A DNA stretch of 64,000 bases. It comes from a candidate division WWE3 bacterium RAAC2_WWE3_1. Lineage in GTDB: Bacteria > Patescibacteriota > WWE3 > UBA101185 > UBA10185. A program made the position numbers and the translations under genes. Location of the stretch: contig CP006914.1 of NCBI GenBank assembly GCA_000503835.1, positions 721,680 through 785,679 on the forward strand, read 5' to 3'. Below are positions 7,781 to 42,536 of the stretch, in pieces; within the stretch, counting starts at the first letter, position 1; each line of letters starts with the position of its first letter. Under the pieces are notes generated by a model, which worked only from the letters and a program-made list of their open reading frames with translations, made no database searches and was not told the DNA's origin.

Positions 7781-9541
7781 ATGGACACGATTAATGAGAT
7801 CAAGCAGAAAATAGATATTGTCGACCTGGTAGGCTCCTACGTAAGTTTGAAAAAAGCAGGCCGCAACTATAAGGGCATTTGTCCCTTTCATTCCGAGAAT
7901 ACCCCCTCTTTTATGGTTTCACCCGAGCTTCAGATTTTCAAGTGTTTCGGTTGTGGTGAAGCGGGTGACATTTTTAAATTTGTCGAAAAAATCGAAGGCA
8001 TTGAATTTTCGGCAGCGTTAGAACAGCTGGCGGTAAAAGCCGGTATAAAACTTGAGAAAAAAGATTACGATCCGGAATCGGCCAGGAGAAAAGAGCTGTA
8101 TCAGATAAACAGTCTGACGGCAAAGTATTACCACTATATTTTAACTAAGCACCCGCAGGGAAAACCCGGATTGGACTATCTTACACAGAAAAGAAAACTC
8201 ACCCCGGAGACGATTGACTTCTTTCAAATGGGGTACGCTCCGGATACCTGGGATTCCCTCCACAACTTCCTTAAAAAACAGGGCATACACGAGAACGAGA
8301 TGTTAGACGCCGGGGTAATTTCCGAAAAAAGTTCAGGCGACGGTTATATCGATAAATTCCGTGGCAGAGTAGTTTTTCCCTTCAAGGGAATTGACGGGAA
8401 CATTGTCGGTTTTAACGGCAGAACTATACTGGACCGCGAACCCAAGTATTTAAACACTGCAGAAACGGCTGTATTCCACAAAGGAACTTTTCTGTTTAAT
8501 TTGGTAAACGCCAGGATAGATATAAAAAAGCACGGTGCCGTCGTGGTTGAGGGGCAAATGGATGTTATAAGTGCTTACCAGGACGGAATAAGAAATATGG
8601 TGGCTTCTTCCGGCACAGCGTTGGCGGAGAACCAGCTAAAAATCCTGCAAAGGTACACTAACGACCTTACATTCTGTTTTGACGCAGATTCTGCAGGAGT
8701 AAACGCAGTTTACCGCGCGGTAGAAATTGCCGAAAAGCTGGGATTTAACATAAAAGTGGCTTTAATTCCGGCTCCTTACAAAGATATAGACGAAGTACTT
8801 AAGGCAGAACCGGAAAAGGCCAAAATCGCTATCCGCGACGCAGTAGATGTTTATGATTTCTACATATCCAGCACACTTAAAGCTAATAGCAAAGAGTCCG
8901 CTCTGGGAAAAAAGATTATATTAGAAGCTTTGGTACCCGTCTTTTCAAAAATAAATAATCCGGTAATTGTGGACCACTATTCAAAAATGCTGGCTACGGA
9001 ACTCGGACTATCCGAAGACACCGTGACTACCATGTTCAAAGGAGGTACCCTGGGCAATTACGTCGGTCCGGAAGACGACCAGAAAATACCTCTTTTGTCG
9101 CGGGACAACCCTGAAGGATACTTTCTAGCCCTTCTCTTCAAGGCGGATATTGACATAATGCGTGAATACGCGTATAAGATGGACGTTGAGGATTTCTTAA
9201 ACCCTATAGTGGTTAATATCTATGAGGCCTTAGTTGCCTACTTAAAAGAAGACAGAAAATCCTTCAACATTAAACAAGTCATAAAAAAAGCCGAAGAAGG
9301 CCATCATGACAACATTTCGGAACTTTACCTTTGGGATTTTGATGGTATTATTGAGGTCGAGTCCCCTCAGATACTTGAGAGGGAGATTGAAAGTGTATTT
9401 AAACGTATTAAAAAAGATTCTGCTAAACGGGCAGTGAAAGCTTTGACGGAGAAGATAAAGGTTGCGGAACTGGAGAAAGATTGGGACCTGGTTCTAAAAC
9501 TAACAAAAAAGGTAGAAAAACTTAAAAAATCGTTTCTATAA
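7781..9541 (+). CDS. dnaG: DNA primase DnaG
   Basis: CPFHSENTPSF...FKCFGCG zinc-ribbon motif, Toprim region (VVEGQMDVIS), 586 aa, located immediately upstream of rpoD. Confidence 0.9.
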   Translation: MDTINEIKQKIDIVDLVGSYVSLKKAGRNYKGICPFHSENTPSFMVSPELQIFKCFGCGEAGDIFKFVEKIEGIEFSAALEQLAVKAGIKLEKKDYDPESARRKELYQINSLTAKYYHYILTKHPQGKPGLDYLTQKRKLTPETIDFFQMGYAPDTWDSLHNFLKKQGIHENEMLDAGVISEKSSGDGYIDKFRGRVVFPFKGIDGNIVGFNGRTILDREPKYLNTAETAVFHKGTFLFNLVNARIDIKKHGAVVVEGQMDVISAYQDGIRNMVASSGTALAENQLKILQRYTNDLTFCFDADSAGVNAVYRAVEIAEKLGFNIKVALIPAPYKDIDEVLKAEPEKAKIAIRDAVDVYDFYISSTLKANSKESALGKKIILEALVPVFSKINNPVIVDHYSKMLATELGLSEDTVTTMFKGGTLGNYVGPEDDQKIPLLSRDNPEGYFLALLFKADIDIMREYAYKMDVEDFLNPIVVNIYEALVAYLKEDRKSFNIKQVIKKAEEGHHDNISELYLWDFDGIIEVESPQILEREIESVFKRIKKDSAKRAVKALTEKIKVAELEKDWDLVLKLTKKVEKLKKSFL

Positions 9542-24656: not shown

Positions 24657-24792
24657 CTCTCTCCTTTGTTATTGGTGGATATTGATAGCGGTATTATAAG
24701 GTAAAATCGTGGTTTAATCAACCTGTAGTGTATGATACATGTTCTGAAACATAGACACGGTCTTTGTAGAAAGAGATGTAATAGGCTAATAG

Positions 24793-25275
24793 TTTCAGGA
24801 GTTTACAGGTGAAAGAAACGAGCTTATAGACCAAAGGAAGAGGCTAAACACAAAGGACAGTAGCTTTTATGAGAAAACTGCAACACTTTACGACGTTGCC
24901 CAAGAGGGTATAGCGATTTATGAAGGTTCAAAAGAATTTGGAAAGCGCAGACTTATAAAGCTTATGTTCACAGATATGGTTCTAAATAGTGGGAACCTAC
25001 CTTTTGCCTATACAAAGCCTTATAAGACATTAAGAAAAGCTGTAGAAGAAACTAACGGTTCGAAAATAGCTGAAAATCCTACCTTTATGAAAAATATTTT
25101 CGAACTCAAGGATTTCAGCGAAGTGAAAGCAAAAATGGAGCTTTTGGGCGTCGATTGTTCTAATTGGCTCCGAGCTGTGCAGGAACTTAGAACCGTTATT
25201 TTAAGCGGTCGGCACTCCTACGAAATGGAGGCGGCTGTCAAAAAGCTCCGAGGAGAAGAACCGTTCGATGAGTAA
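24793..25275 (+). pseudogene. 5'-truncated gene fragment, copy 1 of a duplicated unknown gene (island boundary repeat)
   Basis: Open frame from stop 24790..24792 with no start until an internal Met at 24964. About 75% nt identity to 34726..35148. Translation ...ERNELIDQRKRLNTKD..FTDMVLNSGNLPFAYTKPYKTLRKAVEETNGSK... Confidence 0.5.
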
Positions 25276-25427: not shown

Positions 25428-28307
25428 TTATTCTGGAAAGCTGTACTTTTGTTCTCGTTTTTGGAATGCCTCTTGACCTCCCTCGAGAATTTCACAGACA
25501 TGCTGCCGAATCCCTTTGCGATATAAAATCGCTGGCTCTTCTGTAGCCTCTAACTCAAAGGTATTTTCAAGCGCACCAGAAACGTACTCAAAGCGAAACT
25601 TCTTATTTTCTCTCCCCACCTCCTGTCCGGACTGATTCGCAACAACTGTTTCTTCCGCGTCCGCACCGACAACAAGATTCGGGTTATGAGTGACAATGAC
25701 AATTTGCCTCTGCAATTTTTTCTTTTTCAAGAAATCAACCAAGTCATCATATACAGATCGATTATCAAGATCGTCCTCTGGCTGATCGAGAAGAATAGGC
25801 CACTCTTCGTCACTTAAATTAATAAGCAGCTGTAGAAGTACTAATCCCTTTTTGCCCGGTGACATTTTGTCGAGAGAGTCATTTTTATAGAAAATCCTGA
25901 AGTCGAGATAAAAATAGTTTTCCAAAAGCTTGGCAACAGCATCTTTTGGCTGTCGGTTCTTGACGGTGTTTATCGTCCCCTCGATAAGCCCCTCAAATAC
26001 TGTCGTCATATTGGCCAAATGTTTGGCCGGATCGTACTTGTAAACGAATTCATCACCCCACTCTGCCTCTACAATGACGCGCTTGAGGTCATTTTTATTT
26101 ATATATTCTTTAACCACGTCTGAGTTGAAGACATCGTCGTTAAAACTGACATGTACTCCAAGGGTGATTTCACCGAATTTACTTTCAAATTTCTTGAACT
26201 CATTCCGTAAGCCTTCATGCTTAGCAACTATCAATTTATATGAATCAATGACCCCGTCAGCCTTCTTTTTATAGGAGGCCTTCTTCGTCTTGAGATTATT
26301 TCTCTTGATGGCGATCTCATTTAATTTCTGTTGTTCTTTTTTAATAGCGTCGGTTTTTTCTTGAAGCTCCGATTGTAACTTAACTTTAGCTAGCAAAGGT
26401 GCTAACTCCGCTTTGATTTTGATTAGCTCCGCGTTGTAAGTCGTGATCTTTGTGTCGATAGCCGTAACCAAATTTGTGGTAGCAGATTTTACATTCGGAG
26501 CAAATGAATCCACTACTTTTAGTTCGATTTTAAACTTGGCTTTGATTTCAGCATCGTTGAGATATGCTTCATATTCGTCTGCCATTGTCCGCAAACCATC
26601 GACTTGGGATACCAAGCTGGTGTTGAGGTTTTTAATCGTCTTTTTATCTTCTTCGAGATTTGAAACTTGAGTAGTAATGTCCTTTTCTTTTGTTACCAAG
26701 TCCTCGTACTGCTTAAGTTGCTCTTCCGATAAGCCTGATTTTGCTTTGATATCATCGGCTTGTTTTTGGAGGGTTTGTATATAGCTCTCAATACCTTTTT
26801 CATCACCGGTCTGCTTCAGTTCTTCTTCGGTTTTCTTAATATCGTCCCGATCAGAAAATAGCTCACCAATCTCGGTTGGGATAGACTTAACCTTAACCTT
26901 TATTTCTTGCACGGTCTCCTCGTATTTTTCTCTGATAGTCGGTTCTTGAAGAATTACATTCAAAACAAACTCATTAAGTGCCTCACGGCTTTTAATGTTT
27001 GCTTCTGAAAGAGTGTTTAGATATTTCTGCGGTATATAAAGAATTTTTCGCTCCTTAGACTCATCTTCTGTGGCTCCATCCGGCACTCTTAGCAAAGTAC
27101 GCTGACCATCTTTCCACGTTACTTCAAAATTGAAATCAACTGATGCATCAAAGTCGTATTTTACCGGTACCCCACTATCAGCTGTCCGGTTCTTAACTTC
27201 TTCTCGGTCAATCGTTTTGGCCATGTAATAAAGCAATAGAGACTTGCCGGTTGATTTGCCTCCAATAATCGTAGTTAGATTTTGATTGATCTCAATTGAC
27301 TCACTGCCAAATTTTGCATCGCTGGTATTATCAAGAAAGCGGACTTTATCGATAACAAAATAAGATTTTTTCTCTTCGGGTTTTTGAGGGCCGACAAAGA
27401 TACGTTGCTCTGGTTCGTAAATAATCTGCTTCAATCCCTCAAATGTAGGGTCTGCTTTAATCCATAAGAAATTATCATCCTGATCGCATCGGCCAAGGTC
27501 TCTAAGTGACCTTGCGTCTGAACTAATATGGGCGCAAAACTTTGATGTAAGTGTTGCATTGGTCTTAATATATTCAGAAACAGCAACGGAAGATTGATTG
27601 TGCTGTGACTGTAAAAGATTTACTTTCTGATGATTGAAAATATCCGCGAGATGAGTTCTGTCTGTGCTTGTCCTTTCCTGAAATAACCCATTGCTACTAT
27701 TACAGTGAGGATAGATCACGATGCTGTTATTCTTTTTTGCCTCATTTAAGATATCCTTTATATCCGCAGTCGTTGTAGTAAGCACCCCATCTACATTCGT
27801 TCGATTGTTAATATTGAATTTCGTTAAAAAAGCATGAATCCCAGCCGAAAAAGTTTCTTTTCCATAAAGCTTCTCCCGGAAAAATAAAAGCATGTGAATG
27901 CCTTGGCAGTTGATTTCAACACCCGGTATCACTTTGCACCGAGATTGTTTTGCATATTCTATAAAAGAATCGAGCAAGCAATCATCAAAATAGTTATGAT
28001 CCGTAATGCCAATGCATTCAAGTTCGGGATTAAAGACGTCTAAAAATGCAAAATAACTTCTGACGTAATTAACACATCGATCATTCTTGGGAATGGCCGT
28101 ATCGTTAAAATAAGCCTTCGAGTCATACAGCAGAGCATTCTCTTCGCCACCAACTTTAGCAATGTATTGTTGCCAACCGGTAGGATTCGCTAGTTTTAGC
28201 TCTTCGGAATATTGACTAAGGGATATGTAGCCATCGTCCAATATGGTTTGCGTTTGCAAGTCCCATTTTCGCCATATTGAACCTTTTGTATATGGAAAGT
28301 TGCTCAT
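25428..28307 (-). CDS. PHP-like phosphoesterase domain fused to a Rad50/SbcC-like coiled-coil ABC ATPase (candidate defence nuclease/ATPase)
   Basis: N-terminal PHP-like motifs (KWDLQTQT, IGITDHNYF, VIPGVEI, IVIYPHC, HISSDAR) with His to Gln/Arg substitutions. Walker A IIGGKSTGKS, about 350-aa coiled-coil, signature-like MSPGKKGLVLLQLL, Walker B ILLDQPEDDLD, H-loop IVTHNP. Confidence 0.7.
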   Translation of the reverse strand: MSNFPYTKGSIWRKWDLQTQTILDDGYISLSQYSEELKLANPTGWQQYIAKVGGEENALLYDSKAYFNDTAIPKNDRCVNYVRSYFAFLDVFNPELECIGITDHNYFDDCLLDSFIEYAKQSRCKVIPGVEINCQGIHMLLFFREKLYGKETFSAGIHAFLTKFNINNRTNVDGVLTTTTADIKDILNEAKKNNSIVIYPHCNSSNGLFQERTSTDRTHLADIFNHQKVNLLQSQHNQSSVAVSEYIKTNATLTSKFCAHISSDARSLRDLGRCDQDDNFLWIKADPTFEGLKQIIYEPEQRIFVGPQKPEEKKSYFVIDKVRFLDNTSDAKFGSESIEINQNLTTIIGGKSTGKSLLLYYMAKTIDREEVKNRTADSGVPVKYDFDASVDFNFEVTWKDGQRTLLRVPDGATEDESKERKILYIPQKYLNTLSEANIKSREALNEFVLNVILQEPTIREKYEETVQEIKVKVKSIPTEIGELFSDRDDIKKTEEELKQTGDEKGIESYIQTLQKQADDIKAKSGLSEEQLKQYEDLVTKEKDITTQVSNLEEDKKTIKNLNTSLVSQVDGLRTMADEYEAYLNDAEIKAKFKIELKVVDSFAPNVKSATTNLVTAIDTKITTYNAELIKIKAELAPLLAKVKLQSELQEKTDAIKKEQQKLNEIAIKRNNLKTKKASYKKKADGVIDSYKLIVAKHEGLRNEFKKFESKFGEITLGVHVSFNDDVFNSDVVKEYINKNDLKRVIVEAEWGDEFVYKYDPAKHLANMTTVFEGLIEGTINTVKNRQPKDAVAKLLENYFYLDFRIFYKNDSLDKMSPGKKGLVLLQLLINLSDEEWPILLDQPEDDLDNRSVYDDLVDFLKKKKLQRQIVIVTHNPNLVVGADAEETVVANQSGQEVGRENKKFRFEYVSGALENTFELEATEEPAILYRKGIRQHVCEILEGGQEAFQKREQKYSFPE

Positions 28308-28311
28308 AAGC

Positions 28312-29184
28312 TTAATTCGATTTTTGGTTAAAATATATTACCTTATCTATTTTCTTAAAAAGAAAATTCAAGAATGACAACAGGTCCAGAGCCTCTTCTC
28401 GGTTAATAGGCCAATCAAGTGCTGGTTCATGGGCTTGGGGGTTACGAATAGCTCGCATTAGACCTACCGAAAGATGCATAACACCCTCTTGTTCATTCTT
28501 TTCAGTTCTTGTCTGTTGTGCATTCAGCTTAAGCGTACCGGTAAGCGCAAGAGCGTTTTCCATTAATCGCGATCCATACTCAGACATCTGAGATTTTTCT
28601 TGAATTTCTTTGTCATAAACCTTGCAACATTCAAAGACCGCATGAAAATAATTTCTCTCGGTAAATAGTTTTCGAGCATGCTGGGAAATTTTATTGTGAA
28701 ATTTACGGTCATCAAAAATTTTGGCGTTCTCCGGTATAGCCTTCGATAAAGATGTGATTTTCTCTCCGGACTTCCGTAGCTTCCCATCATCGCCAACCAG
28801 CAAACCGTAAAACCTTAAAATTTGATTCACTTGTTTACAAATAACCTCATGTTTTTCTGGAGCAGAAAAATACTCCTGTGGATCACAAAGTTGTTGAATC
28901 AGCGTCGCGATGTTAAATGTGCCGTAGGTCTGTTTCTGCATTGCTTCCAGAGCAGCATAAACGAACCGCCACTTCGTGCCGCCATCATGGGATATCTCTG
29001 GAAAGCCTGCTTTACGAAAAAGCTCGGATATTTCTGACCCGGTATAGTTGTCTCCGATTATTTTTGCCAGTGCTTCAAGGGCAGGCAACTTAAATGGTTC
29101 TAATTCCATATTCGCTACTTTAGTAATCCACAACCGAACCGCTTCCGTTTTCGTAAGATTTTCGGTATAATGGAAATATAGCAC
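28312..29184 (-). CDS. HEPN-domain protein of the Ymh/TIGR02391 type (Rx4HxE motif)
   Basis: C-terminal NYFHAVFECCKVYDKEIQ...EQEGVMHLSVGLMRAIRNPQAHEP...EALDLLSFLNFL matches the Hypoth_Ymh/TIGR02391 HEPN pattern. 4-bp gap to the downstream ATPase gene, so operonic. Confidence 0.6.
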   Translation of the reverse strand: MLYFHYTENLTKTEAVRLWITKVANMELEPFKLPALEALAKIIGDNYTGSEISELFRKAGFPEISHDGGTKWRFVYAALEAMQKQTYGTFNIATLIQQLCDPQEYFSAPEKHEVICKQVNQILRFYGLLVGDDGKLRKSGEKITSLSKAIPENAKIFDDRKFHNKISQHARKLFTERNYFHAVFECCKVYDKEIQEKSQMSEYGSRLMENALALTGTLKLNAQQTRTEKNEQEGVMHLSVGLMRAIRNPQAHEPALDWPINREEALDLLSFLNFLFKKIDKVIYFNQKSN

Positions 29185-29211
29185 TTTCGGCTTTAAACAT
29201 CAATCAAACTT

Positions 29212-30906
29212 ATGGGTATTCCAGTCACTAAACGACAAAAAGAAGTTTTAGACTTCGTAAAAACCTTCATTGATGATCAGGGCTACTCTCCGACTCTGGA
29301 AGAAATAAAGAAAAAATTACACCTCTCTGCTGTATCAACGGTTCACCAGCATATTAACGCCCTCATTGATAAAGGTTATATAAAAAAGTTCGACAATCTT
29401 GCTCGAGCTATTGAAGTCAATGGCCGGAGGGAAGAAAGTGTAAATAATTTTATAGAAATCCCTCTACTAGGCATGATCGCGGCTGGTAAGCCAATAGAGG
29501 CTATAGAAATACCAGAAACTATTTCCGTGCCTAAAGATTTTACATCAGGCCATGCCCGACACTATGCATTAAAAGTTCGCGGAGATAGTATGCAAGACGA
29601 CGGAATCTTTGATAGTGATACTGTGATTGTCCGCGAACAACCAGTGGTTGATAATGGTGAGATCGGCGTGGCTATTATAAATGGAAACGAAGCTACTCTT
29701 AAAAGAATCTACAAAGAAAAAAATGGTATCAGACTTCAACCAGCCAATGAAAGTTATAAACCTATACTCACCAAGAATGTCGAAATTAGAGGCAAAGTCA
29801 CGGGCGTATTACGAAACAGGTTCGATTCTTTACCTGAACCAGCCCAGCTCCCCTTATTCGTCTATCCTCAAAAAAGCGAACAACGGTTACTTCAAATACA
29901 TAACCGAAGGTTTCTGGGTAACAAAACTAAACTTCTTGGTTTTATAGGAGACATTGTAGCTGACAAATGTCGTGGCTATTATAGCTTTTGTGATATCTTT
30001 GCGGGTACCGGAGTTGTTGGACATTATTTCAATAGGCCAGATACCAAAATCATCTCGAATGATATTCTCGATAGTAGCTTTGTATCTCTTCAATGCTGGC
30101 TGAACACCAAAAATTACAACGAAGAAAAGATATCAAACATCATCGGACATTTAAATAACCTTCAACCGAAGAAAGAGAATTACGTATCGGAAATTTTTGG
30201 CGGCTCTTATTTTACTAAGGAAAATGCACAGAAAATCGGAGCTGTCAGAGAAAAAATAGAAAAACTACATAAAGATGGGGAGATCGACCAGGAAGAGAAA
30301 AATATTCTGCTGACTTCATTAGTTTACGCAATTGATAAAGTGGCTAATACTGTCGGCCATTATGAGACCTATAGAAAAAAACTCGATACAATACAGAGTT
30401 TGCGACTTTTAATGCCAGGCATTGATGTGAAAAACAATCTTAATAATGAAGTTCATCAAAAAGACGCAAATCAACTGATTAGAGAAATCGCGTGTGATGT
30501 GCTTTATATTGATCCACCATACAACTCAAGACAGTATGGAGATTCCTATCACCTACTAGAGAATATTGTTACCTGGGAGAAACCAAAAGTTGAGGGTATA
30601 GGAAAAAAAATGGTAGACCGCGAACATCTAAAAAGCCGTTACTGTTTAAAGGGTGCAGTTCACGCTTTCGAAGATTTGATACAGAACGCAAAAACAAAGC
30701 ATATTCTGGTCTCCTATAACAACACCGGCGAGAAAATGAACGAACGCTCCAACGCTAAAATACCCGATCACAGGATTATTGAGATTTTGAAAGAGCGAGG
30801 AGAGGTTGAGGTCTTCGAGCGAGAATATAAAGCATTCACTACCGGTAAAAGCGAAGCACCGGGTCATACCGAGCGCGTATTTTACTGCAAAGTTACAGGT
30901 AAATAA
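29212..30906 (+). CDS. LexA-like repressor (wHTH plus S24 autopeptidase) fused to a Dam-family (D12 class) N6-adenine DNA methyltransferase
   Basis: Residues 1-200: HTH, AAG cleavage site, GDSM catalytic Ser and LKR Lys of LexA/S24. Residues about 225-564: RRFLGNKTKLL, FCDIFAGTGVVG (motif I) and DPPY (motif IV) of Dam/D12 MTases. Single uninterrupted ORF. Confidence 0.75.
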   Translation: MGIPVTKRQKEVLDFVKTFIDDQGYSPTLEEIKKKLHLSAVSTVHQHINALIDKGYIKKFDNLARAIEVNGRREESVNNFIEIPLLGMIAAGKPIEAIEIPETISVPKDFTSGHARHYALKVRGDSMQDDGIFDSDTVIVREQPVVDNGEIGVAIINGNEATLKRIYKEKNGIRLQPANESYKPILTKNVEIRGKVTGVLRNRFDSLPEPAQLPLFVYPQKSEQRLLQIHNRRFLGNKTKLLGFIGDIVADKCRGYYSFCDIFAGTGVVGHYFNRPDTKIISNDILDSSFVSLQCWLNTKNYNEEKISNIIGHLNNLQPKKENYVSEIFGGSYFTKENAQKIGAVREKIEKLHKDGEIDQEEKNILLTSLVYAIDKVANTVGHYETYRKKLDTIQSLRLLMPGIDVKNNLNNEVHQKDANQLIREIACDVLYIDPPYNSRQYGDSYHLLENIVTWEKPKVEGIGKKMVDREHLKSRYCLKGAVHAFEDLIQNAKTKHILVSYNNTGEKMNERSNAKIPDHRIIEILKERGEVEVFEREYKAFTTGKSEAPGHTERVFYCKVTGK

Positions 30907-30913
30907 TAAATTT

Positions 30914-32731
30914 ATGAAAAAAATTTGGAGCATATCAACAACGGTTAGAAACCCAGAGAGAATCAGGAACTTCCTGGTCGCCCTAAAACCTTTAGATGGT
31001 GAGGTCTGGAATCACGATACTCAAAGGCGATTCCAAATACTCCTCATTCAGCACAAATTATACGGTGCTGGGAATAAACAATTTACAAACAATCTCTCTC
31101 GGGAGCATAGAGAATTGTTGGAAAATTCAGAGACTCTTACCTACGAACAAGCCGAAGAAATTCTAAATGCGAGAAATTATGTCGGTGCTGGTGATATGCG
31201 AGGCCGACAATCATTCAATCCGATTAAAAAGATGGGACTGGCAAAAATAGATGACCAGGGTCGGATTCGGATAACTTCTTTTGGAGAATACCTGCTGAAA
31301 GAAGATGCCGATCTTGGTGAAATGTTCTTTAAGAGTTTTCTTAAATGGCAATTACCGAATCCTCTTTCAAGAGATTTTAAGGTTGAAGATGGATATGACA
31401 TTAAACCTTTCATCGCGACGCTCCACCTCATCAACAAAGTGAATAAAATTTGTCGCAAGCGCGGACTTACTGAGAAAGGGCTATCTCAAGCTGAGTTTGA
31501 TATCTTTGTTCCTACACTTATTAGCTATCAAAATATTCAGGCTCAAGCTCGTAAGGTACTAGAATTTCGAACAGGTCTCGAGAGACTTGCCAATGAGCGA
31601 GAAAAACAAACGTACACCCATAGTTATGTAAGCGAAAACTTTGAAGATTTTGAAAATATGGAACACACCAAGGACTATGGCGACAATATTCGTCGCTATT
31701 TTCGAATGACTAGGTACTTCCATTTGCGTGGCAACGGTTATTATATTGATCTTGAGCCAAGGAGAAGTATTGAAATTCAAAAGATATTGAAGACGGACAA
31801 CGGCTCAAGCCAAGATTTTACTGCGGAAGCATATATTGATTACATCTCTGACATTAACCTGCCAATTCTGCCTTGGGAAACTCAAACAGAGTTGGTGCGA
31901 ATTAGTAACTATACAGCTGATGATATCAGGCAGTATCAAAACCAACTCAGAGAACAAAGAATACAAATACCTGATTTTGAATTTAAGAACACCGATCGTC
32001 TTTCGGTTGAACAACTAAAAGCCTATGTCGGTGAATTGAGAGATTACCGCAGAACTCTTCAAGAAACCGAGGATCACTTTGTATCTCAGAATGTCGACAA
32101 GGTCAGAGAATATATAGATCGGCTACGCAACATTCGACAATCCAAAGAGAAAAAGAGCATTGAGCTTGAACATTTAGCTACTCTAGCTTTGAATGCTATT
32201 AATGACGCACTTGCAATAAAGCCAAACTATCCAGTGGGAGACGATAACCAGCCAACTTTTACAGCACCAGCAAACAAACCAGACATTGAATGTTTCTACG
32301 ACGCATTTAATGGCGTATGCGAAGTAACCATGCTTACTAACCGCGCTCAGTGGATGCAAGAAGGTCAGCCAGTAATGAGACATCTAAGGGACTTCGAGGA
32401 TGCAAATAATAGTAAAGATACTTACTGTTTGTTTGTCGCTCCAACTTTGCATAGAGACACCGTAAATACTTTCTGGACAGCTGTTAAATATGAGTATGAA
32501 GGACGTCGACAAAAGATCGTACCGTTGACGATTAATGAACTCGCAAAATTACTAGAAGCGATTATTGCGATGAAGGACCGTGGTCAGCGACTTGATCACC
32601 GGCAACTCATGAATCTTTACGATTCCATAATCAACTTGACCAGCACAGCGCCTAGCTCTGATGTCTGGACTTCGCAAATATCCGGAGTCGTCGAACAGTG
32701 GTCTCGAGAAATTTTATCAGCACAAGTATGA
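30914..32731 (+). CDS. Type IIS restriction/nicking endonuclease, AlwI/N.BstNBI (RE_AlwI) family
   Basis: N-terminal WSISTTVRNPERI..GEVW, central RRYFRMTRYFHLRGNGYYIDLEP, PDIECFYDAFNGVCEVT, YCLFVAPT and C-terminal IVPLTINELAKLL. These co-linear blocks match N.BstNBI/AlwI family proteins as I recall them. Start set at ATG 30914 just after the upstream stop; the ORF track's 30806 start overlaps the upstream gene. Confidence 0.7.
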   Translation: MKKIWSISTTVRNPERIRNFLVALKPLDGEVWNHDTQRRFQILLIQHKLYGAGNKQFTNNLSREHRELLENSETLTYEQAEEILNARNYVGAGDMRGRQSFNPIKKMGLAKIDDQGRIRITSFGEYLLKEDADLGEMFFKSFLKWQLPNPLSRDFKVEDGYDIKPFIATLHLINKVNKICRKRGLTEKGLSQAEFDIFVPTLISYQNIQAQARKVLEFRTGLERLANEREKQTYTHSYVSENFEDFENMEHTKDYGDNIRRYFRMTRYFHLRGNGYYIDLEPRRSIEIQKILKTDNGSSQDFTAEAYIDYISDINLPILPWETQTELVRISNYTADDIRQYQNQLREQRIQIPDFEFKNTDRLSVEQLKAYVGELRDYRRTLQETEDHFVSQNVDKVREYIDRLRNIRQSKEKKSIELEHLATLALNAINDALAIKPNYPVGDDNQPTFTAPANKPDIECFYDAFNGVCEVTMLTNRAQWMQEGQPVMRHLRDFEDANNSKDTYCLFVAPTLHRDTVNTFWTAVKYEYEGRRQKIVPLTINELAKLLEAIIAMKDRGQRLDHRQLMNLYDSIINLTSTAPSSDVWTSQISGVVEQWSREILSAQV

Positions 32732-33498
32732 AGCTAAACACCATTCACAAAGGCGATTGCCGGACAATATTAAATAAGGACATCCCGGAAGAAAGCGTGG
32801 ATTTGATTTTTGCCGATCCTCCATACAACCTGTCAGGGAATGGCCTTAAATGGGAAGGAAATAAAACAGGTGGAGACTGGTTCATGGTTAACGAAAAGTG
32901 GGACCGGATGACCGAAGCCGAGTATTTAAAATTTACCAAAGAATGGATAGAGGCCTGCAAAAGAGTTTTAAAACCGACTGGCAGTATTTATATTTCCTGC
33001 ACATATCATAATATTGGTGAACTAATCATGGTTCTTAAGGCTCTTGGATTTATTCCAAGGAATATTATTACCTGGCACAAGAATAACGCTATGCCAAGCA
33101 TGACTCGACGCACCTTTACTCATTCATGCGAATACATACTATTTTTCTCAAAGGGTAAGAAATGGGTATTTAATTATTCAGAGATCAAAAAAATAAATCC
33201 AGAGAGAGCAAAAGATGGGTCCGAAAAACAAATGCGTGATCTCTGGATTATGCCTATTGTACAGGGCAAAGAACGAGTGAAGGATAAAACCGGTCGCTCT
33301 GCTCATCCAACACAAAAACCAGAGAATCTACTTGAAAGAGTTATCCTGGCTAGCAGCAACAAAGGAGATATTGTCCTTGATCCTTTTCTCGGAAGTGGAA
33401 CTACTGCAGTAGTAGCTAAACGTTTGGGTAGGAAATGGGTAGGTATTGAAACTGAAGATAAGTATGTAAAAGTCGCTGAAAAACGCCTCAATAATTAG
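32728..33498 (+). CDS. beta-class N6-adenine/N4-cytosine DNA methyltransferase (N6_N4_Mtase)
   Basis: DPPY (motif IV) precedes FLGSGTT (motif I), which is the beta permutation. ATG 32728 overlaps the endonuclease stop (ATGA), suggesting translational coupling. Confidence 0.8.
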   Translation: MKLNTIHKGDCRTILNKDIPEESVDLIFADPPYNLSGNGLKWEGNKTGGDWFMVNEKWDRMTEAEYLKFTKEWIEACKRVLKPTGSIYISCTYHNIGELIMVLKALGFIPRNIITWHKNNAMPSMTRRTFTHSCEYILFFSKGKKWVFNYSEIKKINPERAKDGSEKQMRDLWIMPIVQGKERVKDKTGRSAHPTQKPENLLERVILASSNKGDIVLDPFLGSGTTAVVAKRLGRKWVGIETEDKYVKVAEKRLNN

Positions 33499-33516
33499 AT
33501 ATTCACAAATAAGCAT

Positions 33517-33546
33517 TGACGGTCCATTCTCGGACCAGCTATAATA
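33517..33546 (+). promoter_or_regulatory. strong sigma-70-like promoter TTGACG-18-TATAAT
   Basis: TTGACG at 33517 and TATAAT at 33541. The spacer contains the palindrome GGTCC..GGACC. Confidence 0.5.
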
Positions 33547-33552
33547 AATACA

Positions 33553-33690
33553 TCAGAGTTAGTTGGTCTGACGGCGACTGAGTTCTCAGTCTAAACGCGA
33601 CGGGACTACGACTACTGTTATCGGCACTGCCATTTGGCGTGTGCATTTGATGACAAGAGTCGTGGTCCCGTTTTTGTTTTCCAGCTCGCT
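33553..33690 (+). ncRNA. candidate small RNA (about 135 nt) bounded by a promoter and an intrinsic terminator
   Basis: Downstream of the promoter there is no ORF with an RBS. Long hairpin GGGACTACGACT..AGTCGTGGTCCC followed by GTTTTTGTTTT at 33601..33690. Confidence 0.4.
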
Positions 33691-34725: not shown

Positions 34726-35148
34726 ATAAAGCTCGATGGAAAAATAACCGAGGATTTTTATCAAGAAAAGTACCAAGAGTTTACAGCTGAAAGAAATGAA
34801 CTCATTGTCCAAAGAAAGAAGCTAAACACAAAGGATAATAGTTTCTATGAGAAAACTACCGCTCTTTATGATGTAGCTCAAAAAGGTATTGAGATTTACG
34901 AGGAATCTAAAGAGTTAAGGAAACGCAGATTAATACGGCTTATATTTACAGACATGACCCTTAATAGTGGAATATTATATTTTGCCTACATAAAGCCATA
35001 TATGATATTAAGAAAAGCGGTTGAAGAAACTAATGGTTCGAAAGTAGCTGAAGACGAGACTTTTATGGAAAATATTTTCGAACTTAAGGATTTTAGCGGT
35101 GTTAAAGCAGAAATGGAGCCTTTGGGCATTGATTGTTCTTTATGGCTC
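34726..35148 (+). pseudogene. gene fragment, copy 2 of the duplicated unknown gene, truncated at both ends and abutting the tRNA-Asn 3' end
   Basis: No start codon. About 75% identical to 24793..25150. Identity to copy 1 ends at TGGCTCC, exactly where the minus-strand tRNA 3' terminus (TGGCTCCCCCGGG) begins. Confidence 0.5.
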
Positions 35149-35183
35149 CCCCGGGTGGATTCGAACCACCAACCTGCCGATTA

Positions 35184-35752
35184 CATGTGATCCGTTTGTT
35201 TCCAAACAGCATGGACTATCTCATCATCTTTTGTGTCACCACATTAAGATGTCGGGCGCTCTAGGGTGTAATCACCTAGTCTCTGCACCTTTTCATGTGT
35301 ACCCGGCAAGGCGTACAAATGAACTTGGCTCAGGATTACCATGTCCGTCGATTAATCGACAGAGTTAGGTTTCCCTGAGTTCACCCAATTTTTCAACCGT
35401 CGTTTCCGGCGGAAGCTGCACTACTCCGTTATGAATTTCCTTGTGACAGTTCGAACAGACTAAAACACATTTTTCAAGCTCTCTTTTAATTGTTTCCCAA
35501 CTTCTCGTTAGTCCGCGACTGGCGAGCCCGAAGTCTTTTTTCTGCCCATCTTTATGGTGAAACTCTAATGCCGCAAAGCATTTGTTATAACCACAAAGGT
35601 TGCATTTATTTCCAAGGTACTCGACTGCCAGCATTTTCAGTTTTCGTCTTCTCTTAGAGACAGCGAGACTGAGATAGCGGGGTCTGTCTGAGTACCTTCG
35701 GGTTTCCTTCGTCACAAGATATTTATATAACTTTCATAACGGTTGTCAACGT
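35184..35752 (-). other. tRNA intron (group I-like, inferred) carrying an HNH endonuclease ORF
   Basis: Lies between the two tRNA-Asn exons. Contains CDS 35365..35715 on the same strand. The secondary structure was not verified. Confidence 0.45.
35365..35715 (-). CDS. HNH homing endonuclease
   Basis: CNLCGYNKC...EFHHKDGQKKD...CSNCHKEIHNG. Canonical HNH motif with zinc-binding Cys pairs. 116 aa. Confidence 0.7.
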   Translation of the reverse strand: MTKETRRYSDRPRYLSLAVSKRRRKLKMLAVEYLGNKCNLCGYNKCFAALEFHHKDGQKKDFGLASRGLTRSWETIKRELEKCVLVCSNCHKEIHNGVVQLPPETTVEKLGELRET

Positions 35753-35857
35753 ACAGTCGGACGCTCTACCATTGAGCTACAGGGGAACGAAGCACAGAAA
35801 TACTAACATAACCGCTTCGGGGCTTCAATAATCGATTACTTTTCTATTTAGTGGATT

Positions 35858-42460: not shown

Positions 42461-42536
42461 GGGTGATTAGCTCAATTGGCAGAGCTCTCGTCTTATACAC
42501 GAGCGGTTCCTGGTTCGATCCCAGGATCACCCACCA
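42461..42536 (+). tRNA. tRNA-Ile(UAU)
   Basis: Acceptor GGGTGAT/ATCACCC, D-arm GCTC-AATTGGCA-GAGC, anticodon stem CTCGT/ACGAG with loop CTTATAC (TAT), T-arm CCTGG-TTCGATC-CCAGG, A plus CCA. Confidence 0.7.

Follow-up and report, generated by a model that had tools for sequence, protein, structure and literature searches.

Positions 29212-33498 of a 64,000-nt stretch of the genome of candidate division WWE3 bacterium RAAC2_WWE3_1 (the window; contig CP006914.1, 721,680 to 785,679) hold a Type IIS restriction-modification operon whose first gene joins a complete LexA repressor to a DNA methyltransferase (M1) in a single protein. We consider it probable, by a narrow measure, that this LexA-methylase represses its own synthesis, can be cleaved through RecA, and thereby gates the mobile Type IIS operon and likely its divergent neighbour as well. 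By its domain architecture, the fusion is one member of a large clade of LexA-methyltransferase fusions in the Candidate Phyla Radiation (CPR) and no one-off curiosity. A search for publications on such fusions returned nothing relevant, within a searchable literature that is not exhaustive. The fusion had first been noticed in an earlier reading of this DNA (the original prediction), whose observation is confirmed and whose interpretation is partly supported.

The fusion gene (29212-30906, plus strand) encodes 564 aa in one uninterrupted reading frame, in which Pfam finds all three domains of the predicted LexA-first fusion: LexA_DNA_bind (PF01726) at residues 4-66 (4.9e-17), Peptidase_S24 (PF00717) at residues 84-196 (1.2e-29, spanning model positions 1-115 of 116) and MethyltransfD12 at residues 234-501 (8.2e-33). 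The NCBIfam lexA equivalog TIGR00498 scores 188.8 bits against a cutoff of 110.95, over model positions 3-201 of 203; a stand-alone two-domain LexA has ~200 aa, whereas the present protein is extended to 564 aa by the C-terminal methyltransferase. Aligned with E. coli LexA, the protein has its cleavage bond at Ala91-Gly92 (29482-29487; A84-G85 in E. coli), the nucleophile at Ser126 (29587-29589, in RGDSMQD; S119) and the general base at Lys164 (29701-29703, in ATLKRIY; K156), so that the winged helix-turn-helix (wHTH), the cleavage site and the Ser/Lys dyad are intact, as had been claimed. An AlphaFold2 model built on an alignment of 55 homologues shows three folded modules, the wHTH (residues 1-70), the S24 domain (80-200) and the methyltransferase (225-564; ~224-564 in the sequence), which are separated by a low-confidence hinge (72-78) and by a disordered linker of ~20 residues (203-223; 29818-29880) with a predicted local distance difference test score (pLDDT) below 50; block-mean pLDDT in the S24 module is mostly about 85-91. 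When the model was compared with solved structures by Foldseek, LexA proteins were the best matches, T. maritima LexA (3k2z) at the top, and the DNA-binding domain superposed on 1lea with a TM score of 0.89.

The methyltransferase part carries the motifs DIFAGTG (residues 261-267; 29992-30012) and DPPY (434-437; 30511-30522), both invariant among homologues. It had been called Dam-like, which stands at the level of the D12 class and fails at the level of the Dam family, whose profile TIGR00571 gives 21.2 bits against a cutoff of 114.85; by these profiles M1 is a D12-class N6-methyladenine (m6A) methyltransferase, Dam-like at class level only. Because M1 falls below the Dam-family cutoff, the proposal that a Dam partner fits a GGATC-type recognition site is left unsupported. 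One source labels one M1 homologue 'StsI methylase'. Searching solved structures with the M1 sequence returned LexA-family and UmuD entries only, and the fold search with the fusion returned LexA-type repressors with a few weak unrelated matches; neither gave a DNA methyltransferase, and solved structures thus offer no clue to the specificity of M1.

Downstream of M1 lies an AlwI/MlyI/N.BstNBI-family Type IIS endonuclease (30914-32731, plus strand, 605 aa), which matches PF09491 (RE_AlwI) at 3.1e-81 over model positions 2-440 of 441 and, over its full length, the PADLOC REase_II 'nicking endonuclease' profile at 7.8e-135. Its start is most likely the ATG at 30914, 7 nt past the fusion stop, and its nearest solved relative, the GAGTC-specific N.BspD6I large subunit, is remote (1.3e-33). 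The third gene encodes M2 (32728-33498, plus strand, 256 aa), a CcrM/HinfI-like beta-class N6/N4 DNA methyltransferase (PF01555, 1.1e-67) that contains DPPY and FLGSGTT motifs and resembles CcrM-type NCBIfam models, with scores under their cutoffs. The M2 start codon (ATG 32728) overlaps the endonuclease TGA as ATGA, by 4 nt. Thus the operon order, the endonuclease family, the beta class of the second methyltransferase and the ATGA overlap were all correctly read from the sequence, and the profile matches identify the operon as a Type IIS restriction-modification system with the order M1-R-M2. No open reading frame (ORF) for a small HTH_3 controller (C protein) is present within 29110-33498. 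As for oligomer avoidance in the window, observed/expected ratios are 0.81 for GAGTC and 0.96 for GGATC, which singles out neither as the target site. There is no recognisable Shine-Dalgarno sequence before any start of the operon (29200-29214, 30900-30916, 32716-32730), and translation initiation signals appear to be non-canonical in this organism.

The full-length three-domain fusion is shared by ~85 clusters at 90% identity (59-96% identity, 555-566 aa) that come from independent assemblies (JGI, ENA, NCBI, Logan). Named members are all CPR/Patescibacteria (Daviesbacteria, Parcubacteria, Pacebacteria, Zambryskibacteria), and genome records add Vogelbacteria, Saccharibacteria and Paceibacterota, the closest being a Candidatus Vogelbacteria metagenome-assembled genome at 97% identity. 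Linker length is kept across the fusion homologues. Wherever contigs reach far enough, in more than 20 loci, an AlwI-family endonuclease and M2 come after the fusion. The possibility that a frameshift or an assembly artefact joins two neighbouring genes, which had been raised as a check on the fusion, has practically no probability left: the uninterrupted architecture in ~85 independent clusters rules it out and marks the fusion as a single genuine gene.

The LexA part also leads to a wider clade. Residues 1-205 were used in an exhaustive HMMER search of 1.84 billion representatives of 50% clusters. Most of the nearest LexA relatives (50-58% identity) proved to be long proteins that begin with LexA, and 53 of the best 149 matches have C-terminal extensions. 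Thirty of these 53 are N6_N4 (beta) methylases, 12 are of the N6_Mtase/Eco57I/TaqI_C (gamma) type and several are D12 (alpha) methylases, with some shorter extensions lacking a recognisable domain. The further named members are again CPR (Nealsonbacteria, 'Patescibacteria group'), and the UniRef name of one is 'LexA repressor'. The Ala-Gly bond, Ser and Lys are kept in all 53 fused representatives, as they are in the close fusion homologues, and a few stand-alone LexA relatives among the same matches have lost one catalytic residue. A module used for dimerisation only would be expected to lose catalytic residues in some lineages, and the invariance in 53/53 therefore argues for selection on catalysis.

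In all these contexts, the genes around the relatives form restriction systems. A second D12 type, a LexA plus Dam-like methyltransferase of 508 aa from Buchananbacteria, Nomurabacteria and Saccharibacteria bins, has a separate D12 methyltransferase downstream and a converging 461-aa ORF without a Pfam match. One LexA-beta-methyltransferase (locus L053) is accompanied by a convergent 212-aa gene and an HTH_3 C protein, another lies beside a gene with an MwoI_N domain, presumably an endonuclease, and a gene with an Mrr_N domain, and a LexA-gamma-methyltransferase is found inside a toxin-antitoxin/Abi island. At L057 (1125-2551) a stand-alone LexA of 213 aa shares an operon with a DpnI-family methyl-directed nuclease, of which it stands directly upstream, without a methylase, and has the same promoter with DnaA box and direct repeat that is described below. 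On the methylase side, the closest relatives of M1 that lack LexA (P0091-P0120; ~602 aa, 59-65% identity over the methyltransferase) have a RadC/JAB plus UPF0758_N module at the N-terminus in its place. One of them opens a RadC-M1/AlwI-endonuclease/268-aa-ORF operon beside a tRNA gene (L060 5001-9462, CAYVEO010000041.1), in which the 268-aa third ORF has no Pfam hit on record. By homology, a second DNA-repair-associated domain, RadC, is swapped onto the same methylase.

For the control region we aligned the upstream regions of 34 loci on the start codon, taking in both D12 types, the other methyltransferase classes and stand-alone relatives. The rightward promoter P(+) predicted for the restriction-modification operon (29143-29171, plus strand) consists of a weak -35 TTCCGT (29143-29148), a 17-nt spacer and the -10 TATAAT (29166-29171); the -10 is kept as TATAAT or TATACT in all loci, and the -35 of distant relatives is TTGACA or TTGACT. 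Overlapping this -10 is a predicted LexA operator, TTTTCGTAAGA / TTTTCGGTATA (29148-29169), a direct repeat with an 11-bp period (TTTTCG-N5-TTTTCG). The search that had been suggested for a palindromic operator found none, and the conserved element is this direct repeat instead. Its core is invariant among 28 aligned upstream regions, and 34/34 loci carry the form TTC[GT]-N7-TTC[GT] at -53 to -65, which gives strong in-silico support to the claimed LexA control of the operon. In a scan of 628 kb of flanks that allowed up to one mismatch, each LexA-fusion start analysed had TTTTCG-N5-TTTTCG shortly before it, and five further one-mismatch matches elsewhere look like chance; across these flanks and the 64-kb window, the operator is thus found solely at the LexA gene's own promoter. 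The one match in the window does not exceed chance expectation, and the case for the operator therefore rests on conservation across loci.

The 11-bp period is kept in every locus while the repeat sequence drifts with LexA divergence, from TTTTCG in the two D12 types to TTCGG in L056, L059 and L061 and GTTCGG in L057; with the same period and position, distant relatives have GTTC-N7-GTTC (L053) or TTCG-N7-TTCG (L055, L056, L059, L061). GTTC-N7-GTTC is the established direct-repeat LexA box of Alphaproteobacteria (PMC8565304), and for Patescibacteria, too, a direct-repeat LexA box is cited by the Erill laboratory (PMC7739468, reference 52). A conserved leader, AATATAGCA...ACATCAATCAA, precedes the ATG at 29212. 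Between the two D12 types the 90 bp upstream are 89% identical and the LexA coding DNA only 62%, which suggests either that the non-coding cassette is more constrained than the protein or that it recombines as a unit.

The left edge of the control cassette is formed by a DnaA-box-like nonamer, TAATCCACA (29124-29132), with one mismatch to TTATCCACA. In 30/34 loci the operator is preceded, at a distance of 12-30 bp and in either orientation, by a nonamer at most one mismatch from TTATCCACA, compared with 4.9% of random 130-bp windows that contain one. It is also seen in the upstream regions of L024, L021, L027, L030, L055, L057 (two copies), L059 and L061, and in L057 and L061 a second copy lies in the leader. 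This distribution suggests an input of DnaA or another factor into these restriction promoters. A role of the box as Shine-Dalgarno sequence of the leftward gene is ruled out by its variable distance from the ATG (14-26 nt) and its inversion in some loci.

A leftward promoter, P(-), is predicted within the LexA leader (29175-29203, minus strand) by promoter scan and our own scoring, directed toward the HEPN/ATPase operon, with the -35 TTGATG (29203-29198), a 17-nt spacer and the extended -10 TGcTATATT (29183-29175). Of the 34 loci, 21 score at least 9.5 of 12.5, a level that 1.2% of random 87-nt windows reach, and equivalents occur in the distant L053, L055 and L059. Transcription from P(-) is predicted to start near 29168, right beside the operator, so that a single LexA dimer bound there would occupy -30 to -9 of P(+) and +1 to +20 of P(-). 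A divergent gene that starts about 100 bp away is the closest upstream neighbour in 30-32 of the 34 loci (the count of 32 takes in two loci with a large minus-strand ORF outside the ORF filter), and these partners vary from Ymh plus TrlF in the window, L001, L017 and L037 to TPR-PIN, a STAND-like NTPase, a serine recombinase or a large protein without a Pfam match. From this comparison, the bidirectional cassette is conserved and its pairing with particular upstream genes is not. Hence the idea that one repressor gates both modules is plausible as regards the conserved P(-) and divergent gene, but the partner itself is not conserved.

In the window, the first divergent gene (28312-29109, minus strand) encodes a 265-aa Hypoth_Ymh/TIGR02391 protein similar to PD-Lambda-3_B (PF09509, 6.5e-33; PADLOC PD-Lambda-3_B, 6e-36), in the translation of which an Rx4H motif, RNPQAH, is seen. 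Its start ATG 29109 is conserved in L001, L017 and L010 and leaves 102 bp (29110-29211) before the fusion; the 27-bp gap of the original prediction came from a GTG-extended ORF. The second gene (25428-28307, minus strand, 959 aa) encodes a TrlF-family protein with PHP and AAA-like ATPase domains (NCBIfam NF045780, 491.6 bits, cutoff 350; PADLOC Ppl, 9.1e-19) that is related to anti-phage Ppl, and the ATPase matches Ppl/TrlF and not a PD-Lambda-3_A model. The window ATPase is 24% identical to that of L001 (5956-9096), while the adjacent Ymh is ~96% identical and the Vogelbacteria locus otherwise ~91%, which indicates cassette swapping inside the neighbouring defence module.

The operon and its control region appear to move together. 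Comparison by blastn with loci that have different neighbours places the cassette edges at ~29122 and 33498, homology to L003 and L018 starting at 29122/29124, and near-identical fusions (80-97% at the amino acid level) occur in Vogelbacteria, Daviesbacteria, Saccharibacteria and Paceibacterota bins, always in the same mobile cassette. Such identity across distant CPR lineages, together with the sharp edges, argues for horizontal mobility. Within the cassette, the endonuclease has two forms, both PF09491, of 605 aa and ~647 aa, which are 24-29% identical to each other. The first is 84-97% identical to the window's and the divergent form is found in L004, L006, L007 and L019-L034, with flanking methylases at 68-95% identity throughout, whichever form is present, a pattern which suggests that the endonuclease was replaced or diverged very fast inside a fixed operon frame. 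At L031 (7001-8951) the operator (8679-8695) and the LexA start (8733) occur once more behind a 3'-truncated M1, and each tandem LexA gene has one operator match, consistent with a promoter plus LexA module that recombines as a unit. Several contigs (L010 9962-10477, L044, L045, L046; clusters P0136, P0152) contain Ymh, the cassette and the first 89-143 LexA codons, in ORFs of 115-171 aa, with the methylase and restriction genes gone, and they may be either deletion remnants or a repressor reduced to its DNA-binding domain and kept for the leftward operon. No sign of a phage origin came from viral contigs, in which the operator sequence has no exact match.

These features suggest the following control cycle. 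The LexA part of the fusion, dimerised through the S24 domain, would bind the two direct repeats spaced by 11 bp (29148-29169), and because these overlap the operon -10, the bound fusion would repress its own operon by negative feedback. As the operator sits at the start of P(-), the divergent defence genes (the PD-lambda-3-like HEPN protein and the TrlF ATPase) would probably be held down too. When RecA is activated on single-stranded DNA, whether from damage, processed restricted DNA or phage replication, the invariant Ala-Gly bond and Ser/Lys dyad lead us to expect self-cleavage at Ala91-Gly92, which would cut off the DNA-binding domain and release both transcription units from repression. 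Such a response might serve to boost defence when RecA filaments form, to supply extra methylase in repair synthesis, or for damage-triggered suicide.

Several points weigh against this control cycle. The predicted -35 of P(+) is weak in the window cassette, and P(-) is a consensus match only, the leader of which could instead serve translation of the LexA mRNA, a role considered because no Shine-Dalgarno sequence is visible. The endonuclease shares the operon with M1, such that derepression would raise toxin and antidote alike and the selective benefit is not obvious. Moreover, with a bulky methyltransferase on its C-terminus, LexA might fit poorly into the groove of the RecA filament. RecA is presumably present in the host, and tblastn with E. 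coli queries found neither recA nor dnaA in the window or the sampled flanks.

Restriction-modification autoregulation can also be explained without SOS. The LexA module may only bind DNA and dimerise in an autorepressing controller, with cleavage unused or reduced to slow RecA-independent turnover, much as a C protein or an SsoII-type HTH would act, and the operator/promoter layout accounts for autoregulation without any cleavage. Methylase-borne autorepression is an established form of restriction-modification control (PMC3874152), and the C protein beside the LexA-methyltransferase of L053 implies that LexA need not be the timing switch. Nevertheless, the entire cleavage-site region and the S24 fold are retained, and the catalytic residues that a few stand-alone relatives have lost are invariant in the fusions, and we therefore judge an SOS-independent controller unlikely, while still giving it some weight. 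More doubtful is a damage-triggered suicide switch, in which RecA-induced cleavage would expose degradation signals, as in the E. coli LexA fragments, the S24-methyltransferase fragment would be lost, one strand of the asymmetric site would stay unmethylated and the endonuclease would kill the damaged or infected cell, as in abortive infection. The new C-terminus after cleavage, ...GMIAA, resembles the ...RVAA end of the E. coli LexA N-fragment that is recognised by ClpXP, M1 and M2 are distinct enzymes such that loss of M1 alone could unprotect one strand, and the locus lies in a defence island beside an abortive-type HEPN/ATPase module. Yet derepression would at once resupply full-length M1, instability of the C-terminal fragment is an assumption, and the logic fails where LexA is joined to single palindromic-type methyltransferases or stands beside a DpnI-like nuclease.

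Equally improbable, in our view, is a housekeeping LexA, that is, the host's global SOS regulator, which captured a methyltransferase and whose link to restriction-modification is incidental. The protein does pass the lexA equivalog cutoff, homologues are annotated 'transcriptional repressor LexA' in their sources, and no other lexA was seen within the 64-kb window; against this, highly similar fusions occur across distant CPR lineages always within the cassette 29122-33498, L031 has two LexA genes in tandem, the operator is found at the gene's own promoter only, and the partners span three methyltransferase classes and a DpnI nuclease. Returning to the RecA-cleavable LexA-methylase, we can extend it, tentatively, to a CPR-wide class of self-contained RecA-sensing master switches, in which a portable cassette of DnaA-type box, direct-repeat operator, back-to-back promoters and LexA coding module would be placed before many unrelated methylases and would bring the restriction system, and any defence cargo on the cassette's other side, under the control of DNA damage or infection, possibly with an input from replication through DnaA. 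We regard this extension as possible, with the balance tilting against it.

The known SsoII-type examples of methylase-borne control are C5-cytosine methyltransferases with a short HTH and no known sensor. Unlike these, the fusion carries a full LexA of ~200 aa with a self-cleaving S24 domain, its methyltransferase is an m6A enzyme of the D12 class (elsewhere in the clade beta or gamma), the operator is a direct repeat, and the divergent gene belongs to a variable second defence system and is not the cognate endonuclease. Nevertheless, the design recalls the SsoII/Ecl18kI/EcoRII/ScrFI-type methyltransferases in the N-terminal DNA-binding domain on a restriction-modification methylase, the operator over the methylase promoter in a divergent-promoter region, and the predicted negative feedback on the antidote gene (PMC3874152). 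With canonical LexA (E. coli, T. maritima 3k2z) it shares the order wHTH, hinge and S24, the Ala-Gly bond, the Ser/Lys dyad and a predicted operator over its own promoter, here of 11-bp direct repeats as in Alphaproteobacteria (GTTC-N7-GTTC); it differs in being fused to an enzyme within a horizontally mobile restriction cassette, and its own bidirectional promoter is the only target identified, with no SOS repair genes linked. C proteins are likewise dedicated transcription factors encoded in the restriction-modification unit and acting at their own promoter, but they are small stand-alone HTH_3 activator-repressors with palindromic C-boxes that usually delay endonuclease expression, and they lack damage sensing and self-cleavage. 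LexA-repressed toxin-antitoxin and colicin modules (symE, tisB, dinJ-yafQ) are similar toxic mobile modules under a LexA-box promoter (PMC3874152); they use the host LexA in trans, whereas here the module brings a LexA fused to the antidote enzyme. Finally, the endonuclease of about 600 aa with PF09491 and the two adenine methylases are those of AlwI/MlyI/PleI/BstNBI-BspD6I Type IIS systems, from which the present operon differs by its remote similarity to N.BspD6I, by the absence of a small-subunit gene, and by an M1 that bears LexA here and RadC in the L060 lineage.

The surroundings of the operon contain further elements. Just downstream of M2, a near-consensus promoter (TTGACG-18-TATAAT, 11/12) is followed by a very stable structure of ~130 nt (-61.8 kcal/mol, z = -6.4) that ends in a hairpin and a U-run; this region (33516-33685, plus strand) is a candidate small RNA, without a match in Rfam, and the sequence around it is ~91% identical to L001 and lies outside the restriction-modification cassette. 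Further on, the anticodon loop of a tRNA-Asn(GTT) (35143-35786, minus strand) is split by a 569-nt group I intron (RF00028, 90 bits) that holds an HNH-type ORF (35365-35715), and the 3' end of this tRNA adjoins the defence island. The TrlF-Ymh-restriction island lies between imperfect direct repeats of 300 nt (24788-25087 and 34766-35065; 77% identity, 9978 bp apart). A coding segment of ~90 nt (25160-25250, ...ELRTVILSGRHSYEMEAAVKKLR...) recurs at the far end of the variable cargo in L001, L003, L010, L018 and L037 and may be a conserved island-end gene. ARAGORN also finds a tRNA-Ile with the anticodon TAT (42461-42536, plus strand), which is uncommon in bacteria, where AUA is usually read by a lysidine-modified CAU tRNA.

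Restriction-modification is believed to be the main defence in the CPR, which largely lack CRISPR. Control of restriction-modification is known from C proteins, methylase-borne HTH domains, antisense RNA and promoter methylation (PMC3874152). Judged from the conserved domains and promoters, the fusion is a new form of methylase-borne control that is widespread in CPR bacteria, and if our interpretation is true, a cleavage-competent LexA on the antidote enzyme adds a further control logic, by which restriction and methylation are coupled to damage or infection sensed by RecA. Because the design occurs in at least 53 divergent clusters with three methyltransferase classes, it would represent a general strategy in this huge, uncultivated group. 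The conserved bidirectional cassette, moreover, suggests co-induction of neighbouring defence systems, which bears on how defence islands are regulated. The system is compact, with about 100 bp of DNA and one protein, and provides a naturally occurring case in which an enzyme is linked to a predicted self-cleaving sensor; if true, it would amount to an inducible, modular 'defence-island regulator' in the CPR.

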